Shown: positions 29,359-36,217 of the stretch, piece after piece
Layout of the letters: every line of letters starts with the position of its first letter
Position numbering within the stretch: the stretch's first letter is position 1
DNA from: an uncultured Planctomycetales bacterium
Lineage (GTDB): Bacteria; Omnitrophota; Gorgyraeia; Zapsychrales; JANLHA01
Assembly: GCA_964489065.1 (NCBI GenBank)
Contig: CAZAXH010000001.1
Coordinates: forward strand, 155,460-219,459
Direction: 5' to 3'
Length of the DNA: 64,000 nt
Made by a program: the position numbers and the translations under genes
Notes under the pieces: generated by a model
Database searches by the model: none
What the model saw: the letters and a program-made list of their open reading frames with translations, nothing else
What the model was told of the DNA's origin: nothing

Positions 29359-29784
29359 TTATTTCTCCCAAACCTCCGGAGCCATGCTCCCCGGGCTGTT
29401 GAATTCCACGCGATAAGGCTCAATGAGCATAAGCGCGTAATTCGGGTCTTCCGGCCCGCTGAACACGGCCGAAAGCATTTCAAACCAATAACGGTTCTTC
29501 TCCTGCTGATCCGTCGTTATGCTCGCCGTCCCCTGAATCTGAACATACGGCTTATCCATGTCCCGGGGGTCGTTTATCCCGAAGGTCAGGTGCACTTCCG
29601 GATTTTTCTCGATCTGTTTTACTTTCCTGGATTCCAGGCAGACCGCCGAACGGATATTAAAATTTTCGTCAGCGCTGATCATGACATAACGGGTCCAGGG
29701 CTTCCCATCCAGGGTAATCGTCGCGAGGCTGGACAACTGCGGTGTTTTCAAGAGTTCAATAACTTTTCGTTTAACGTCTGACAT
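29359..29784 (-). CDS. pyridoxamine 5'-phosphate oxidase-like (general stress protein 26) family FMN-binding protein
   Basis: LKTPQLSSLATITLDGKPWTRYV PNPOx-like split-barrel N-terminus. GGAGGG RBS. Confidence 0.7.
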   Translation of the reverse strand: MSDVKRKVIELLKTPQLSSLATITLDGKPWTRYVMISADENFNIRSAVCLESRKVKQIEKNPEVHLTFGINDPRDMDKPYVQIQGTASITTDQQEKNRYWFEMLSAVFSGPEDPNYALMLIEPYRVEFNSPGSMAPEVWEK

Positions 29785-29835
29785 TTTCCCTCCTTAATTA
29801 AACATTCTTCTTACACGATATAACAGCGCAAAAAA

Positions 29836-31011
29836 TTATATTTCATCGTCCAACACGAGGTTCTTGATAATGACATCCCCCGCGGCCCATTCCGCGTCCC
29901 AGGCGGCGACAGGGGCTTCAAAAATAATTTGAAACAATGTCCCGGTCCGGTCATTGGCCACCAAAGAATGAAATATCCTGACCGGCTCCATCCCCGGCGA
30001 ATTCTCGACATATTGATAAAGGCAGCCCCAAAACGGCCCCTTCGGGCCATGCTCCCGCCTTTCAAGTTTATACCGGCTTTGAACTTCATCGGCCATGGCT
30101 TCCGCGAATTGCGACGGCAGAACACGGCCCTGCGGCTGCGTGGCGACATTTTGAAAAGATATAAATGTCAGGCCGGTTTGAAAATGGCCCTGCTCATCGG
30201 CATTTTCCTTGCTGACAGCCCAAATCTTTTTATCCCCCAGGTCCTGATGATTGACATGCCAGCCCTTCGGGGCAAGGATGGCGGCCTTGATCTCCTCCAT
30301 TTTGAGCCATTGAAACCCATTGGGCGGAGGGGGCAGTTGAGCCAGAAAAGAGTCAAGGGCCGTCGCGTCCCGTGCCGCTTGGGGCGACGGCTTAAGTTGC
30401 GATGCTTTCGGCGCGGCGCCCGCCTGCCCGCCTAACGATATCGTGATATCCTTCCCCTGGCTGTCTTTTAACCTGACGGAGAACTCTTCTATTTCAACGA
30501 TCTTGCAGCCGGCCACCTCATCACCGACGCCTGCCACTTCGCCGTTGATCACGGCCATGGCCGGGTCCCCCAAACTGACGCCTTCCAGCACCAATTTATT
30601 TTTAAAAAAGCCGGGGTCGCGCTTTTTAATTTCCGGCTTTTTAATTCCAGGTTTCTTTGCCGCAGATTCTTGATACGCCTTAACGACCTGGTCCATGGGA
30701 GGCCGGATAAAAATTTTCCCGTTCACGTCCAACACCGGCAATTCATAGCGCGAGGTGTCAAGCCCCGCCTTTTCCATGCGGCTATGCAAGACATCGGCCG
30801 TCGCCGGGTCGTCAATATCTTTCGAATAAGAGCGCATGCTCAAAGCGCTGATGTCCTGCCGGTATTTTTGGGTATATCCGCAGGCTTCCCGCCCGTAAAC
30901 CGCCACGTAAGGCGGCGGATAAAGCGGTTCTAGCTGGCTGCGGCTGCGGGCAAAATAATAAGCCCCGGCGCCGGCCGCGATAATAAGGATGCCGATAAAA
31001 ATATTTTTCAT
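29836..31011 (-). CDS. hypothetical membrane-anchored periplasmic protein with a GspB/PilP-like beta domain
   Basis: N-terminal TM. AVINGEVAGVGDEVAGCKIVEIEEFSVRL resembles the C-terminus of the 62455-63018 protein. Confidence 0.45.
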   Translation of the reverse strand: MKNIFIGILIIAAGAGAYYFARSRSQLEPLYPPPYVAVYGREACGYTQKYRQDISALSMRSYSKDIDDPATADVLHSRMEKAGLDTSRYELPVLDVNGKIFIRPPMDQVVKAYQESAAKKPGIKKPEIKKRDPGFFKNKLVLEGVSLGDPAMAVINGEVAGVGDEVAGCKIVEIEEFSVRLKDSQGKDITISLGGQAGAAPKASQLKPSPQAARDATALDSFLAQLPPPPNGFQWLKMEEIKAAILAPKGWHVNHQDLGDKKIWAVSKENADEQGHFQTGLTFISFQNVATQPQGRVLPSQFAEAMADEVQSRYKLERREHGPKGPFWGCLYQYVENSPGMEPVRIFHSLVANDRTGTLFQIIFEAPVAAWDAEWAAGDVIIKNLVLDDEI

Positions 31012-31026
31012 GGGTTCCTTTCGGGA

Positions 31027-32190
31027 TTACGGTTCGCTGATCTTGAACCAGATTGGATTCGAGCACAAAGAACCGGCATATTGGGCTTTGACATAAATGG
31101 TATCCGGCTCCTTCAATAATACGGGCATCCGCGACAGAACCGCCCCATGAAACCGCAGGATCAGGTTGCCGCCCCTCCGCTGGATTTCCTTAAGGTACGG
31201 CTCTTCTAAATCTTCTCGGAGGATTTCCCCGGTGAGCCGGTATTCATAAACGCCCTCCGGCTCAAGCGGCACCCGGTGCTCAACATCCTCCTCCCCCTGA
31301 ACAGGCCTCACGATAAAGGCCTTGTCCTTGCCGTCCGTCAGCCGCACCATGCGCCGCAGCACATCGCTTTCCTTAAACGCCAATTCAACCCGGCTCCCGC
31401 CCGCGTTATGCCACCGCAATGTCAGCGCGACCTGATCCCCCGCCTGATACGCGTCCTTATCGGCGGAAAGGCCCAGGGTTAACCCGGGCTGAAGGTTCCG
31501 GCAATAAAGTATGCCCGGCGAGGCCCCGAGAATACTTTGCAGGTTCGACACCTCGATCGGGAAATTGGAAGAAGGGCAATCCCGGCCGGCGCAACACGGC
31601 GCCGCTTCCGAGAGGATTTCCAGGGCGGTGACCGCCTCGTCACCCAAACGCTGATAAAATTCCCGCGCCAGCTTTTTATTTTTCTCATCGCCGCCCGAAT
31701 AAAAATCCAGTCGGTTGAACACGTCCATGGCCAGGCGACGCAGGGCGTAAACGCGGATCATTTCCTCCCCGCGGGCCAGGGCCTGCCGCATGTCCGGGAT
31801 TTTTTCCGCCTTTGTATACGGATAGGCCAGGACAAAAATATCGGTCCGGCGGTGATTCTCGAACACAAGCACCAGGCTGTCATCCTGCCCTAAAAACATA
31901 TTGGCGGCGATATTCTCCCGGTAGTTCTTCCGCATGATATCCTGCCCGGCAGAGGACACCAGAGAATATCTTGTGTAAAGGGTGTCTGTAAAATACCCGT
32001 CCCCACACCCGTAACTTTTCACTTTCTTCTCCTGATGAAGAGAATACGCCTCCCCCCGGGAGTTGGTGACGGTTCCGGCGTTAGATTGAACCAGGGTCAC
32101 CCGCACATCATAATACAGCCCCAGCATGTACGCGCATCCGCACGCGCCCAAGCAAACGGCGAGCAGCCAGGGGATTTTTCTTTTAATCAT
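31027..32190 (-). CDS. hypothetical lipoprotein; ATG overlaps the stop of the upstream 42-aa ORF (ATGA)
   Basis: MIKRKIPWLLAVCLGACGC lipobox. Confidence 0.5.
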   Translation of the reverse strand: MIKRKIPWLLAVCLGACGCAYMLGLYYDVRVTLVQSNAGTVTNSRGEAYSLHQEKKVKSYGCGDGYFTDTLYTRYSLVSSAGQDIMRKNYRENIAANMFLGQDDSLVLVFENHRRTDIFVLAYPYTKAEKIPDMRQALARGEEMIRVYALRRLAMDVFNRLDFYSGGDEKNKKLAREFYQRLGDEAVTALEILSEAAPCCAGRDCPSSNFPIEVSNLQSILGASPGILYCRNLQPGLTLGLSADKDAYQAGDQVALTLRWHNAGGSRVELAFKESDVLRRMVRLTDGKDKAFIVRPVQGEEDVEHRVPLEPEGVYEYRLTGEILREDLEEPYLKEIQRRGGNLILRFHGAVLSRMPVLLKEPDTIYVKAQYAGSLCSNPIWFKISEP

Positions 32191-32315
32191 GAATTAGACC
32201 TTTCAGGGGTGGACGAAATTTGGTTCTTAGGCTTCCCGTCCAAGGTAACCGTCGCAAGGCTGGACAACTGCGGTGTTTTTAACAAATCAATTACTTTTCG
32301 TTTAACGTCTGACAT
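32187..32315 (-). other. 42-aa ORF: duplicated 5' end of the PNPOx-family gene (27/29 aa identical) with 13 unrelated residues, translationally coupled to the downstream lipoprotein gene
   Basis: MSDVKRKVIDLLKTPQLSSLATVTLDGKP versus MSDVKRKVIELLKTPQLSSLATITLDGKP at 29698-29784. About 88% nt identity over about 95 nt including the CCTCC RBS. Differences are mostly synonymous. Confidence 0.6.
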
Positions 32316-32423
32316 GCCCCCCTCCTTGGTTTCCTATACCCGACACAAAATACTTCCCAGGGCCGCACAGGCGGCCGGCGGCCGAAGGTAGCGGAGCGCC
32401 CCTAATGTTGTTATAGGATTAGT

Positions 32424-33143
32424 CTATCTTTCTAAATCCTTAATATATTTTTTTGCCAGTTTATCGCATTCGGCTATTAACCGATTAGGAAAATTTTCTA
32501 GCCCGCTATCCGTAGAAGCATATATCAATGTAAAATTTTCAGGTAAGAAGAATTGAGTATCTATCGGCGATTCTCTTGAATTATATTTTTCAATATTTCC
32601 ATAATCTGAATCCACAATTATTGCAATCTTAAAATTGTCCCTATATTCCTTTTGATGAATGATATCCTTAATGAGTTCCCGCCAATTAGTCTTTTCAGTT
32701 ACATCGGGATTATTTTTAAAACAAATCGGACCCCTCATTAATAGTTCACGAGTCGATGGTTTGTATTTTACACAATAACATACAGAGATAAGGTCACCGT
32801 TGACTTCTTTCGAATTTGTATCTATTGCATATATATAGTCAAACTGGTTTAAATAATCGAGTGTTAAATCATTGGGATCTATAGATATATCATACAAAAT
32901 CTTTGGCCCCTTGCTTCTGTCATACCATTTTCTTAATAATGCTCGTAAAGGATGGGCTTTTATACCATTAGTTTTAAATTCTATTTTACCTTTTGGCCCA
33001 ATAGTCAATCCATTGATAACAGTTGGGGTTCCCATATCTACCGAAATGCTTTCGTGCCGCGATTTTTTATTCATACAACACTTTTTATATTTCATGCCAC
33101 TGCCACATGGGCACAATGCATTTTTATTTATTTGTTTATCCAT
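32424..33143 (-). CDS. SEC-C zinc-motif protein with C-terminal putative metal-dependent nuclease-like domain (low-GC island gene 3)
   Basis: N-terminal CPCGSGMKYKKCC SEC-C motif. Downstream strand/acidic pattern YIYAIDTN...IAIIVDSDYG...LIYASTDSG. AT-rich codon usage. Start is at ATG 33143 or GTG 33179. Confidence 0.55.
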   Translation of the reverse strand: MDKQINKNALCPCGSGMKYKKCCMNKKSRHESISVDMGTPTVINGLTIGPKGKIEFKTNGIKAHPLRALLRKWYDRSKGPKILYDISIDPNDLTLDYLNQFDYIYAIDTNSKEVNGDLISVCYCVKYKPSTRELLMRGPICFKNNPDVTEKTNWRELIKDIIHQKEYRDNFKIAIIVDSDYGNIEKYNSRESPIDTQFFLPENFTLIYASTDSGLENFPNRLIAECDKLAKKYIKDLER

Positions 33144-33214
33144 ATTTTGTCTATAACATCCAAGCTCACCTGCTGCCACACGCGCAGCGGGTGGCCGTCA
33201 GGTGAAGCGCGTTG

Positions 33215-33766
33215 TTATGAGTCACTTTCAAAACCTATTATATTTTTATAATTTTTTACCATGTCACAAACGACAAACAAAATCAAAATTACGCCAAGAA
33301 AATGAGGTATCTTCAAACCAACTCCAACACCTATTGCTCCCGCCAAAAGATTACCCAAAGTTCCGATTAGCCATCTATGTAATGTATAAGAAGCAATTTT
33401 ATTCTTGGCTCCTATATATTCAACGTCATTAATATTTTCAATTCTTTCTGGAATCCTCATAATAGCGGTCCAGGTCTGCCATTTTGATGCTAATTTAAAA
33501 GTCAACCAACCTGCAATCAATTCTGGTTTCCCACAAGCAAAAGAAATATAAGAAAACAATGCCTCAAATATTCCTAATATCTGATTAGTTTTAATTGTAT
33601 ATTCGAATGCTTCTTCCCATATTTTGGGGTCAATATTACTTGGAGGATGAAAATTCTTAACTTTCTCAATTTTTTTCATCAACCAGTTTACGGCTCTAGA
33701 AGCAAACCACATAGCGCACAACCCAAACACAAAATTCCATAATTGAAAAATATCTTCAAGTTTCAT
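33215..33766 (-). CDS. hypothetical multi-pass membrane protein (low-GC island gene 2)
   Basis: 4-5 predicted TM helices. GAGGGAAG RBS. Confidence 0.55.
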   Translation of the reverse strand: MKLEDIFQLWNFVFGLCAMWFASRAVNWLMKKIEKVKNFHPPSNIDPKIWEEAFEYTIKTNQILGIFEALFSYISFACGKPELIAGWLTFKLASKWQTWTAIMRIPERIENINDVEYIGAKNKIASYTLHRWLIGTLGNLLAGAIGVGVGLKIPHFLGVILILFVVCDMVKNYKNIIGFESDS

Positions 33767-33816
33767 TATTCACTTCCCTCATAACGCAAAGTTCACTCGC
33801 CAGAAGCCGTGTCCAG

Positions 33817-34449
33817 TCAGGCGCGGGTTCCGGTCGAGTGTAACGGCTCGTTAGGTCTTATTATTACGGTTTCACAGTTCAGGCTGACATCATTTTTCTT
33901 ATATGAACCTAATCCAATGCCGCTCAGCAACCATTTAGTAGTGCTTTTATCTAATGGAGTGCCTCTGCCTTTGAAACCACGCAAATCACCAAATGGTTTA
34001 AATCCAGCTGTCTTATCAAGTTCTTTATTCATTGATTCCGCATAATCGAGAACATCTGAAATTGCCCTTCGTATGTTGGCATCCGATACATTTTTCCCAT
34101 GAATAACTTTATCTCGAATTCTTTCGGCCTCTTTAATTAGAGAAGTTGTTTCTTTGGGTAATTGAGAACCAAATATATTTTTGTATAATTCTAGAAATCC
34201 TTCACGCGTCATATGGTGTGAATTAATAATATTCGAGGCAATTTCAGCGTGGGCACGATGCAATTTTACTACTCCACAATATATTGTTCTGTTTTGAGCC
34301 TTTTCTGTTTGAAGAAAGATGTATGCTAAGTTTACCTCGTAAGGACAATTTTGTATCAAATTTGGTAGGTGTTCAAAAAAAAATTTTACATCTTCTGTGC
34401 ACGACTCATATTTCTTAAGAATTCCTTTATAAGATGCTGGATCAGTCAT
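33817..34449 (-). CDS. hypothetical protein with HEPN-like Rx4HG motif (low-GC island gene 1)
   Basis: EAERIRDKVIHGKN matches the Rx4-6H HEPN catalytic motif in a helical context. GGAG RBS before ATG 34449. TATAAT-containing promoter-like AT-rich region upstream, around 34560-34590. Confidence 0.5.
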   Translation of the reverse strand: MTDPASYKGILKKYESCTEDVKFFFEHLPNLIQNCPYEVNLAYIFLQTEKAQNRTIYCGVVKLHRAHAEIASNIINSHHMTREGFLELYKNIFGSQLPKETTSLIKEAERIRDKVIHGKNVSDANIRRAISDVLDYAESMNKELDKTAGFKPFGDLRGFKGRGTPLDKSTTKWLLSGIGLGSYKKNDVSLNCETVIIRPNEPLHSTGTRA

Positions 34450-34789
34450 AAATTGTTTCTCCGAACAATTCTTTAACGCCCCATCCATTTGCTGGTAAGC
34501 TTTGTTGCTTAGCGCTGGAATAATTTAATTTTTGCCCTGATTTTTTATTATTATAGCCCTGTTTTTTATAAAATGGTATCCATTTGCCCTGTAATATCAC
34601 TTATACGGAACGTCGTATATCAGGGGTTTTTGTTCATGTCCTGTATCAAATCATAAAGTCAGTCTTTGGAAAGCTGAAAAAAGTTATTTTTATTATACTT
34701 CAATTTATCAAAAAATCCCCGCTTTAACCCCATTTTCTAAACATCAGGGCCGCCTTCCTTATTATTAATATTCGTCGTCCGGGATAAGC

Positions 34790-35359
34790 TCACGCGCCCA
34801 GGCAGAAGACATACCACACGCCGGCGGCGATGTGGGTGCCGTTTTCTTGCTCGCGCAGAAGGGAAGCTTTGATGTCGTGCTTTGGGATAAGCAGGACTTC
34901 GATCTCTTCGGAAGGGTCAAGCTCCTGAAGGGGGTTCTGATTGCGGGGATCGTTTTCATCCACGTCAACGGTGATGACCTGGCAGTCCTCATCCGTGATG
35001 CCGATCGTGGTCTTTAAAACCGGGCTCGCGCTGGTCAGCCGCCCGGTAAACCCGGTTTCTTCCTTCAGCTCCCGCAGGACATGGGTAGCGTCCGAGTACG
35101 ACACGCCGGCCGGGAACCCGATCACAAAACCGTTCAACGCCTGCCGGAACTGTTTGATCAGGATATAACGCTGTGAAGGCATCAGCCGGGCGACCGCCAC
35201 GACGGTCAGGCCTTTTTCCCGGCGCGCCACGCTTTCCCAGAAAACCTCCTCGCCTTTCGCGTTGACGAAGACGGACCTCAAAAATATCAGCCAGCGGCCT
35301 TCACACAGAATCTCTTCTTTTATTTTTCGCACAGCGGATTCTCCCGCGGTTGAACACAA
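34790..35359 (-). CDS. NUDIX hydrolase
   Basis: Nudix box GFPAGVSYSDATHVLRELKEETGF. Confidence 0.8.
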   Translation of the reverse strand: MCSTAGESAVRKIKEEILCEGRWLIFLRSVFVNAKGEEVFWESVARREKGLTVVAVARLMPSQRYILIKQFRQALNGFVIGFPAGVSYSDATHVLRELKEETGFTGRLTSASPVLKTTIGITDEDCQVITVDVDENDPRNQNPLQELDPSEEIEVLLIPKHDIKASLLREQENGTHIAAGVWYVFCLGA

Positions 35360-35362
35360 AAA

Positions 35363-35818
35363 TCAAAACACGCCCGTCAGGCCTAACACCCCCACCACCC
35401 CAAACATCCCTCCGACAATAAAAAGAATCATAATCCCACCCATTTTCCCCGGCTCGAGAACCGCTTCTTCCGGCTGATCCGGGTTATAATAAACAACGAC
35501 TTCCGCTCCCGGGGGATAACGGTCAACCGTGGCTTGGGCCGGCCCGCGGCTATGCGTGCGGTATTCGCCGAAGGAGATTTTATCGGACGAATATTGAACA
35601 CCATTGACGGTGTATTCATACCTGACATTCGCGCCGTAGGTCGTCCTGTGGTGCCCTTTCTTCGAGCGGGAACGGTGGGCCGTCACCTCGGAAGAGACCA
35701 CGCTCCCCTGCGTTGTCGGCCAGCTCTTGCTGGCCTGGGACTTCACATAAGACAGATAGCCCAGATAAACGATGCCTCCGCCGATAACGGCGAACAATGA
35801 AAAGATTAACGTTTCCAT
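35363..35818 (-). CDS. DUF3592-like membrane protein
   Basis: TM - beta-rich domain - TM. Basic stretch HRSRSKKGHHRTTY typical of DUF3592. Confidence 0.5.
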   Translation of the reverse strand: METLIFSLFAVIGGGIVYLGYLSYVKSQASKSWPTTQGSVVSSEVTAHRSRSKKGHHRTTYGANVRYEYTVNGVQYSSDKISFGEYRTHSRGPAQATVDRYPPGAEVVVYYNPDQPEEAVLEPGKMGGIMILFIVGGMFGVVGVLGLTGVF

Positions 35819-35927
35819 GCTCTGCTCCCTGATTCAAACCCAGCCGTATTATATGCCCGGGGGGAAGACTCCGCCATAGAAATCAAGGAAGATCCGCTCC
35901 TCCAAGCCCTTTGGGCCCGCTAAATTT

Positions 35928-36056
35928 TTAAATTAAATCCGCGAATATGATCCCCAAAGACCTGTTCTCCCCGTCCCAATCCTGGAGGGGGCCCCGTTCT
36001 CCTAAAGCGTACCCCGCCCAGAGGAAAATCGCGTAGCACAGCGCCAGTTTATCCAT
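35928..36056 (-). CDS. small ORF (42 aa), hydrophobic N-terminus; absent from the ORF track
   Basis: GGGAGGAG sits 3 nt upstream of the ATG. MDKLALCYAIFLWAGYALGERGPLQDWDGENRSLGIIFADLI. Confidence 0.3.
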   Translation of the reverse strand: MDKLALCYAIFLWAGYALGERGPLQDWDGENRSLGIIFADLI

Positions 36057-36181
36057 GGTCTCCTCCCTGCCGAAGGCCCCGTTTACAGTACACCATCTTC
36101 AACCGGCCGCCGGCGCCGCGCCGCAACCCAACCGGCGCCCGCCGCAGTTTATCGCTTCGTCCGCCGCCAATCCGCGGCGAC

Positions 36182-36217
36182 AAAAAAAACCCGCTGTTCC
36201 TTTTTAAACAGCAGGCT
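36182..36217 (-). terminator. rho-independent terminator downstream of the YceI-like gene
   Basis: On the minus strand, GCCUGCUGUUUAAAAAGGAACAGCGGG stem-loop followed by UUUUUUUU. Confidence 0.55.

Follow-up and report, generated by a model that had tools for sequence, protein, structure and literature searches.

A second PNPOx gene start at the edge of a variable cassette slot in Candidatus Omnitrophota, read as a probable recombination scar

Why should the beginning of a gene stand a second time, its reading frame intact, in front of another gene? The question is raised by a 64,000-nucleotide stretch of DNA from an uncultured Planctomycetales bacterium (GTDB phylum Omnitrophota; assembly GCA_964489065.1, contig CAZAXH010000001.1, positions 155,460 to 219,459), which is called the window hereafter and provides the coordinates used below. 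Every gene discussed lies on its minus strand, and transcription proceeds towards lower positions (Table 1). In the window, the Shine-Dalgarno (SD) sequence and first 29 codons of a gene of the PNPOx family (copy A) recur upstream of a lipoprotein gene (copy B), where they open a 42-codon open reading frame (ORF). An earlier note, made from the window alone, had interpreted copy B as the survivor of an old duplication and gene-capture event, retained by selection as a translationally coupled leader peptide. Having compared the locus with those of related strains, we hold with moderate confidence that copy B is instead the scar of a cassette import, carried in from a related lineage.

The repeat described in the earlier note was confirmed by alignment. 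Positions 29699-29784 and 32230-32315 form a direct repeat of 86 nt with 90% identity, by far the longest within 28-36 kb, in which perfect runs reach 23 nt at most. Both copies are preceded by the Shine-Dalgarno sequence AAGGAGG. Over the 87 coding nucleotides, 77 are identical, as are 27 of the 29 encoded residues, the two replacements being E10D and I23V, and there are no indels or stop codons. The Nei-Gojobori method gave dS 0.44, dN 0.047 and dN/dS 0.11 for this pair, bearing out the remark that most differences are synonymous. The probability that 10 random substitutions cause two amino acid changes or fewer is 5e-4, and the synonymous excess is therefore real. Homology of copy B to PNPOx orthologues extends upstream to about position -17 (AACCAAGGAGGGG), with 0 to 1 of 500 shuffled sequences scoring as well; copy B thus spans about 32229-32332. 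The k-mers GTAATTGATTTGTTAAAAACACC and CTTGCGACGGTTACCTTGGACGGGAAGCCT are specific to it. Past codon 29, copy B reads KNQISSTPERSNS, that is, 13 unrelated codons ending in a TGA inside the ATGA of the lipoprotein start, also as first reported.

We compared the window with seven related loci, L004, L005, L006, L007, L019, L020 and L021, which are 89-95% identical to it at the nucleotide level; genome and metagenome scans identified their clade as Candidatus Omnitrophota. The lipoprotein gene, the gene for a 391-residue protein, the PNPOx gene and the genes downstream are collinear with the window in all seven, and copy B is present in none of them. In every one, homology to the window ends at position 32194, four bases ahead of the lipoprotein ATG; on the side of the NUDIX hydrolase gene it begins again where the contig permits (near 34711 in L007, near 34786 in L006 and L021). 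In the place of copy B, the relatives have a native lipoprotein leader (...CAGAGATT...TAGATTTACAGAAATGACGATCC-ATG), of which the window retains nothing. At least 47 nt of this leader are shared by six loci, 125 nt by L004, L007 and L019, and 25 nt by L005.

In the tree of the backbone, the window groups with L007 (6.2% divergence) against the L4-type loci (7-9%). The state without copy B but with the native leader is thus found both in the sister and in the outgroup, and the fragment therefore represents one gain in the window lineage; we saw it only in this strain and its ~99.8% identical twin. An old duplication with a surviving truncated paralogue does not fit this distribution. Nor was the two-gene block between the repeats captured, as the earlier note proposed: the order lipoprotein-391-residue protein-PNPOx without the fragment in all seven relatives makes the block backbone and the fragment the newcomer. 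As to a full second PNPOx paralogue, which the earlier note proposed to look for in related genomes, the related loci have the native leader at that place and a single PNPOx copy. At the level of sequence, these comparisons show a fragment that is strain-specific, lies at the edge of a cassette and coincides with the loss of the native leader.

The native leader of the relatives contains a six-codon mini-ORF, ATG ACG ATC CAT GAC TAA (9455-9472 in L004, 7587-7604 in L007, and others), which overlaps the lipoprotein ATG out of frame and has no obvious Shine-Dalgarno sequence. It may be a chance occurrence, and it has gone from the window with the leader.

Where does copy B come from? We compared the first 87 coding nucleotides among five orthologue lineages, namely copy A of the window, the L7 type, the L4 type, L030 and L031. 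These differ from one another by 4-7 nt, and copy B differs from them by 9-12 (10 from copy A, 9 from the L4 type). Its identity to the PNPOx 5′ ends of the relatives is 89-92% over 84-102 nt, and to copy A 89.5% over 86 nt. Copy B is thus no closer to A than to the orthologues, and none of the four states private to A is found in it (33C, 78T, and, in the Shine-Dalgarno region, AATT instead of AACC). The states that it has in common with these lineages are D10 and 36A (L4 type), 31T (L7 type), and 18A and 69T (copy A and L030). At site 73 it has the T of the outgroup, where all five clade lineages have C. The encoded residues of copy B match those of clade members at 26-28 of 29 positions and those of everything else at no more than 24, showing that it belongs to this clade.

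Within the first 29 residues, only positions 9 (in one lineage), 10 and 23 vary among the clade orthologues, and the two amino acid changes of copy B fall on 10 and 23. The dN/dS ratio is 0.05-0.11 between B and any orthologue and 0-0.30 between pairs of intact orthologues. As far as these substitutions can tell, copy B was not derived from the resident gene, and its pattern is orthologue-like. On the simplest reading, copy B formed the beginning of an intact PNPOx gene in another lineage for almost its whole history and was cut off only recently. With such a history, the synonymous bias would be inherited and hence uninformative on selection on the 42-residue peptide. The earlier note had taken preservation at the protein level as a sign of selection on the peptide or its coupling; that argument lapses, since the dN/dS of copy B equals that of intact orthologues and its amino acid changes lie at sites where these vary. 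Moreover, coupling constrains only the open frame and the position of the stop, and so does not explain conservation of amino acids.

The peptide is also far from a complete PNPOx protein. The resident gene, whose orthologues in Candidatus Omnitrophota metagenome-assembled genomes (MAGs) are 96% identical at the amino acid level, encodes a full PNPOx_N split-barrel domain (PF01243, residues 7-128, 60.6 bits against a gathering cut-off of 28.1). In the 42-residue product, tblastn detected homology over residues 1-29 only, and neither a complete domain nor a Pfam match was found. The 29-residue piece corresponds to about 23 of the 120 positions of PNPOx_N, arguing that it is not an autonomous fold.

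The surroundings of copy B bear on how it arrived. Between the leader that adjoins the NUDIX gene and the lipoprotein gene lies a variable slot, filled in each strain by unrelated, small, low-GC cassettes. At least four different cassettes fill it in related strains, upholding the earlier view of the site as a recombination hot spot. The cassette of the window, with 35% GC against about 54% in its surroundings, was found in none of the seven related loci, where other cassettes take its place. In an alignment of the window, L007, L006 and L021, the outer edge of the slot is fixed at about 34462, just ahead of the first gene of each cassette. The inner edge varies by lineage, lying 125, 47 or 25 nt upstream of the lipoprotein ATG, or 4 nt in the window. 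This combination of a fixed outer and an irregular inner edge indicates repeated replacement with illegitimate inner joins rather than the action of a site-specific recombinase. The segment specific to the window extends from 32195 to 34463, and copy B, a spacer and a filler lie within it, at its inner edge.

The spacer separates copy B from the low-GC cassette, such that the two do not abut as the earlier note had it; it is GC-rich and unique in the window. The filler encodes most of the 13-codon tail of the 42-codon ORF and sits where the relatives share the native leader. When spacer and filler were compared with the window and all fetched loci by blastn-short and local alignment, nothing beyond chance was found. 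No integrase domain was detected by Pfam in the cassette or in the two-gene block, and no tRNA or Rfam element was present. Searches of plasmid and phage collections returned no meaningful match to the cassette, and PADLOC recognized no known defence system among the cassette proteins, with only the SEC-C motif being matched. From its gene content, the slot looks like a toxin/defence hot spot.

Table 1. Features of the locus and contents of the variable slot in the window and in related loci
Feature	Position	Strand	Description and basis
PNPOx-family gene (general stress protein 26-like), resident, full-length	29359..29784	-	141 aa; Pfam PNPOx_N E=2.5e-16, Pyrid_ox_like E=2.4e-11
Copy A: SD (AATTAAGGAGGGAAA) and first 29 codons of resident PNPOx gene	29698..29801	-	direct repeat, alignment, site table
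391-aa protein gene, N-terminal membrane anchor, conserved backbone	29836..31011	-	ORF list; Pfam: no match
387-aa lipoprotein gene, conserved backbone, clade-restricted	31027..32190	-	signal peptide and LGAC lipobox
42-aa ORF (29 PNPOx codons and 13 unrelated)	32187..32315	-	ORF list; TGA overlaps lipoprotein ATG (ATGA); Pfam: no match
Filler, 34 nt	32195..32228	-	between end of PNPOx homology and lipoprotein start; holds weak SD-like GAAAGG
Copy B: ~17 nt of 5′ untranslated region with SD (AACCAAGGAGGGGGGC) and 29 codons of non-resident PNPOx allele	32229..32332	-	
Spacer, GC-rich (58%), 91 nt	32333..32423	-	between SEC-C gene stop and copy B; unique in window
Low-GC (35%) three-gene cassette: HEPN (Swt1-like), 183-aa membrane protein, SEC-C-motif protein	32424..34449	-	composition, Pfam
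AT-rich non-coding leader downstream of NUDIX gene, common to strains	34450..34789	-	alignment of window, L007, L006, L021
NUDIX hydrolase gene, conserved backbone flank of slot	34790..35359	-	Pfam NUDIX; collinear with L007 from 34711 onward, 91%
Slot, window	32195-34789		HEPN_Swt1-like, transmembrane and SEC-C genes
Slot, L007 and L019	5402-7597 (L007)		membrane protein; HTH_17 and Fic/Doc pair
Slot, L006, L020 and L021	3940-7478 (L006)		HEPN (Cthe_2314-like) protein and four unknown genes
Slot, L004	1-9465		>9 kb of other genes, including HTH_31/Peptidase_M78

Edges of this kind resemble those of a known process. In homology-facilitated illegitimate recombination (HFIR), as documented in PMC3240628, one end of the incoming DNA is anchored by homology and the other is joined illegitimately. 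PMC5361080 proposes the same mechanism for variable type VI secretion system (T6SS) and Rhs loci, where displacement leaves orphan genes behind. The window has the corresponding features, with an outer edge in the shared leader at about 34462, an inner edge at -4 and a deleted native leader.

We infer the order of genes in the donor, the transfer of copy B together with the cassette, and the mechanism of recombination as follows. The slot would have been refilled in the window lineage by the low-GC HEPN/membrane/SEC-C cassette. The donor would belong to the same clade but to a different lineage, placed at the sampled crown or just outside it, in which the cassette lay directly upstream of PNPOx. 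The incoming DNA would have ended with the GC-rich spacer, being the region upstream of the donor PNPOx gene, followed by ~104 nt of that gene (the Shine-Dalgarno sequence and 29 codons). Its outer end would have recombined at the conserved leader, and an illegitimate join containing 34 nt of filler would have attached its inner end about 4 nt ahead of the lipoprotein ATG. Such a join would have deleted the native lipoprotein leader and kept the resident genes for the lipoprotein, the 391-residue protein and PNPOx. A homologous crossover within PNPOx would instead have removed these genes. The 42-codon ORF would then be an accidental product of the join, its synonymous differences having accumulated while copy B was still part of the donor's intact gene. 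The end of homology of copy B at about -17 may mark the old insertion site of the lipoprotein-391-residue protein block in the crown ancestor; if so, the spacer would be the ancestral PNPOx upstream region, kept in the donor.

Several observations weigh against this account. No full-length PNPOx allele of the B type was found in the 90% protein cluster, in a scan of GTDB genomes or in a viral scan, and a metagenome scan with a 23-mer common to A and B did not retrieve a full-length B-type gene either. We found no cassette adjacent to a PNPOx gene, the SEC-C homologues elsewhere (62-70% amino acid identity) not being located beside one. The outer flank at 34722-35096 is 93-96% identical to L007, without a divergent donor tract, and a simple one-step model with a divergent anchor is therefore not demonstrated. 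Copy B is flanked on both sides by DNA that gave no match, the spacer and the filler, such that the event may have been more complex or have involved multiple steps; with 34 nt of filler at the join, microhomology is unreadable. The phylogenetic inference rests on 87-104 nt, and the excess distance of copy B (dS 0.44-0.70 versus 0.16-0.28) is not statistically secure.

Might a scar of cassette import nonetheless have been put to use? The geometry is that of translational coupling, with a strong Shine-Dalgarno sequence at a good spacing (AAGGAGGGGGGC-ATG) at one end of the ORF and ATGA at 32187-32190 at the other. The lipoprotein gene's own Shine-Dalgarno sequence is at best weak (GAAAGG). From the slot leader through PNPOx, all genes point the same way and are separated by short gaps; we found no terminator-like site between the SEC-C and lipoprotein genes, and no consensus promoter or terminator near copy B. 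The region of copy B and the spacer gave no significant RNA fold (z=0.85), and no Rfam match or tRNA was detected there. The ORF is annotated as a gene in two Logan assemblies, and it should be translated from its strong Shine-Dalgarno sequence if the region is transcribed. It is plausible that termination-reinitiation at the ATGA delivers ribosomes to the lipoprotein start, and it may thus compensate for the lost native leader. The ORF is not a conserved leader ORF, being confined to this strain and its twin. That the scar has been exapted, with the imported PNPOx ribosome binding site (RBS) and the 42-codon ORF now acting as the translation-initiation module of the resident envelope operon, is conceivable, although we consider it rather unlikely. 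According to a weaker variant, the 86-nt repeats may allow occasional RecA-mediated loss of the envelope block, giving a cassette-PNPOx arrangement.

An old intragenomic duplication of the PNPOx 5′ end, with the truncated paralogue kept by selection as a translationally coupled leader peptide, would account for the strong Shine-Dalgarno sequence, the intact 42-codon frame, the overlap of stop and start codons and the real synonymous excess; the absence of the native leader also makes a replacement for translation initiation plausible. We judge it improbable all the same. The fragment is missing from all seven relatives, including the sister, which share a different leader, and the divergence between A and B exceeds that of the clade crown, such that at least two independent losses would be needed. 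Coupling would preserve the frame and stop of a piece that is no autonomous fold but not its residues, and the amino acid changes of copy B are at sites free to vary in the full-length protein.

No better a chance can be given to the idea that the template of copy B was another, diverged PNPOx paralogue of this genome outside the 64-kb window, used in ectopic recombination or in a templated insertion during the repair that installed the cassette. Such a source would fit a fragment that is not resident-derived yet belongs to the same tight clade, and would explain the synonymous bias as well as horizontal transfer does. However, tblastn revealed no second copy within the 64-kb window, and related MAG loci have a single copy. 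A search of 5.8 billion proteins, which included proteins from this organism's 470-kb NCBI contig, found one clade PNPOx per genome and none with a B-type N terminus.

Very unlikely is an origin within this lineage by copying of the resident gene, for instance by templated insertion, followed by neutral drift, with a synonymous excess due to chance. The source would be only 2.5 kb away on the same strand, and 10 changes in 87 nt could accrue neutrally since the split from L007, to judge from the 6% backbone divergence. This reading is contradicted by the low probability of two or fewer amino acid changes calculated above, by the lack of all A's private states, and by the frame being free of indels and stops.

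The last rival, an assembly chimera of co-occurring strains, might be suspected of any metagenome-assembled genome from a population with strain diversity, but it can hardly be entertained here: the same junction is found in two more assemblies, L003 (SRR15237810, 100% identical over 13.5 kb) and L028 (SRR21822500, a slightly different strain from a different sample), and no k-mer is common to PNPOx codon 29 and the filler/lipoprotein start that might cause a mis-join. L028 is identical in the SEC-C 3′ end, spacer, copy B, filler and lipoprotein start, and differs by 4 single-nucleotide polymorphisms (SNPs) further inside the lipoprotein gene; the same junction next to a gene with SNPs rules out a chimeric assembly.

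The SNPs of L028 had also suggested that the cassette and copy B are younger than the backbone (none in ~650 nt, against 4 in the adjacent 390 nt). This argument was withdrawn because the SNPs simply cluster in the lipoprotein gene, the background rate being 0.1%. Between the window and this ~99.8% identical strain there are 19 SNPs, of which 11 lie in the 1.16-kb lipoprotein gene, at 31288-32151. Those in codons 14-117, four in number, are synonymous without exception, and each of the seven in codons 228-301 changes the amino acid (L228F, N232K, G240A, G265R, G299V and two in E301). This second cluster is no more than 254 nt from a contig end and could be due to mixed strains or to an artefact at the assembly tip rather than to diversifying selection.

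Two further schemes were considered and rejected. Campbell-type integration of a circular segment comprising the lipoprotein gene, the 391-residue protein gene and the PNPOx 5′ end is contradicted by both flanks and PNPOx codons 30-141, which are of the clade type and collinear with L007, copy B alone being deviant. As to a site-specific island flanked by att sites, there is no integrase or tRNA, and the DNA between the repeats is conserved backbone. The contexts of more distant PNPOx orthologues (L008, L009, L032 and L034) are non-syntenic and uninformative on the ancestral order. In L032 (146-1068; 79% PNPOx identity), a tandem second PNPOx-family gene is located immediately upstream of the orthologue; it belongs to a very different subfamily and is unrelated to copy B.

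The backbone genes and the slot provided some additional observations. The 391-residue protein gene is found at the same position in L004, L006, L007, L019-L021 and L030. Homologues of the lipoprotein form only two clusters (95% and 88%) among the 5.8 billion proteins, arguing that the block is confined to one clade. For the SEC-C-motif protein, the ORF at 32424-33179 encodes 251 residues from a GTG, and public annotations start at an internal ATG and give only 157 residues (P0124, L003). With 233-235 residues in the closest full-length homologues (P0123, P0125), the public gene call is probably truncated.

The AT-rich leader next to the NUDIX gene has about 140-330 nt in common between strains, with 87-92% identity, and ends exactly where the first gene of each cassette starts. 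It could serve the strains as a common promoter region, or the slot as its recombination anchor. An extra segment of ~80-105 nt is present in this leader in the window and L006, not in L007. When L005 (1-63) was compared with L007 (6568-7597), sequence that lies ~1 kb upstream in L007 (TTATTTATTGTGAATTAAGTATTGTGTCCCTGGAATTA) was found fused directly to the last 25 nt of the lipoprotein leader. This join amounts to a deletion of ~1 kb that removed the pair of HTH and Fic/Doc genes, and represents another irregular inner junction. On the far side of the slot, divergence from the sister L007 peaks at 35100-36190, with 75-88% identity against 93-97% on either side; the peak covers the N-terminal half of the NUDIX gene and an adjacent gene for a 151-residue membrane protein and may be a separate recombination tract.

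How does the locus compare with known systems? With HFIR scars, T6SS effector-immunity arrays and the orphan modules of Rhs and contact-dependent inhibition (CDI) loci, it shares a variable cassette between conserved flanks, one edge being fixed and the other irregular, as well as the loss of resident sequence and a truncated gene piece left at the join. Orphan modules usually derive from the displaced resident gene, whereas the present piece stems from the 5′ end of a housekeeping-type gene nearby, in a non-resident allele. The scar also differs from those of HFIR in the filler DNA at the join, with no readable microhomology, and in that neither a donor nor an anchor tract was found. It resembles the coupled upstream ORFs (uORFs) and ATGA gene pairs of bacterial operons in having a strong Shine-Dalgarno sequence and a short ORF ending in a TGA that overlaps with the ATG of the next gene. 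Regulatory leader peptides of the classical type are conserved together with the operons that they precede. In contrast, the uORF described here occurs in no relative outside the twin and is very young relative to the clade. Similar to integrated islands that are flanked by attL and attR and bring a replacement gene end, two copies of a gene 5′ end in direct orientation bracket a 2.4-kb segment; however, the bracketed segment is backbone, the mobile DNA lies outside the repeats, the repeats have diverged by 10%, and integrase and tRNA are missing. As in defence and toxin hot spots, the small low-GC genes found in one intergenic slot (HEPN, Fic/Doc and unknown) are unrelated from strain to strain, but the cassette proteins match no described PADLOC system beyond the SEC-C motif.

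Copy B is otherwise probably an ordinary recombination scar of a known kind, and it holds a caution for reasoning from sequence alone: a fragment may show a dN/dS of about 0.1 without being under selection itself, because the signature of purifying selection is inherited when the fragment was until recently part of an intact gene in a diverged relative. The locus also illustrates, on a small scale, a variable toxin/defence slot of the uncultured phylum Candidatus Omnitrophota, in which cassette turnover leaves irregular inner junctions and, in one strain, has rewired the 5′ end of the neighbouring envelope operon.

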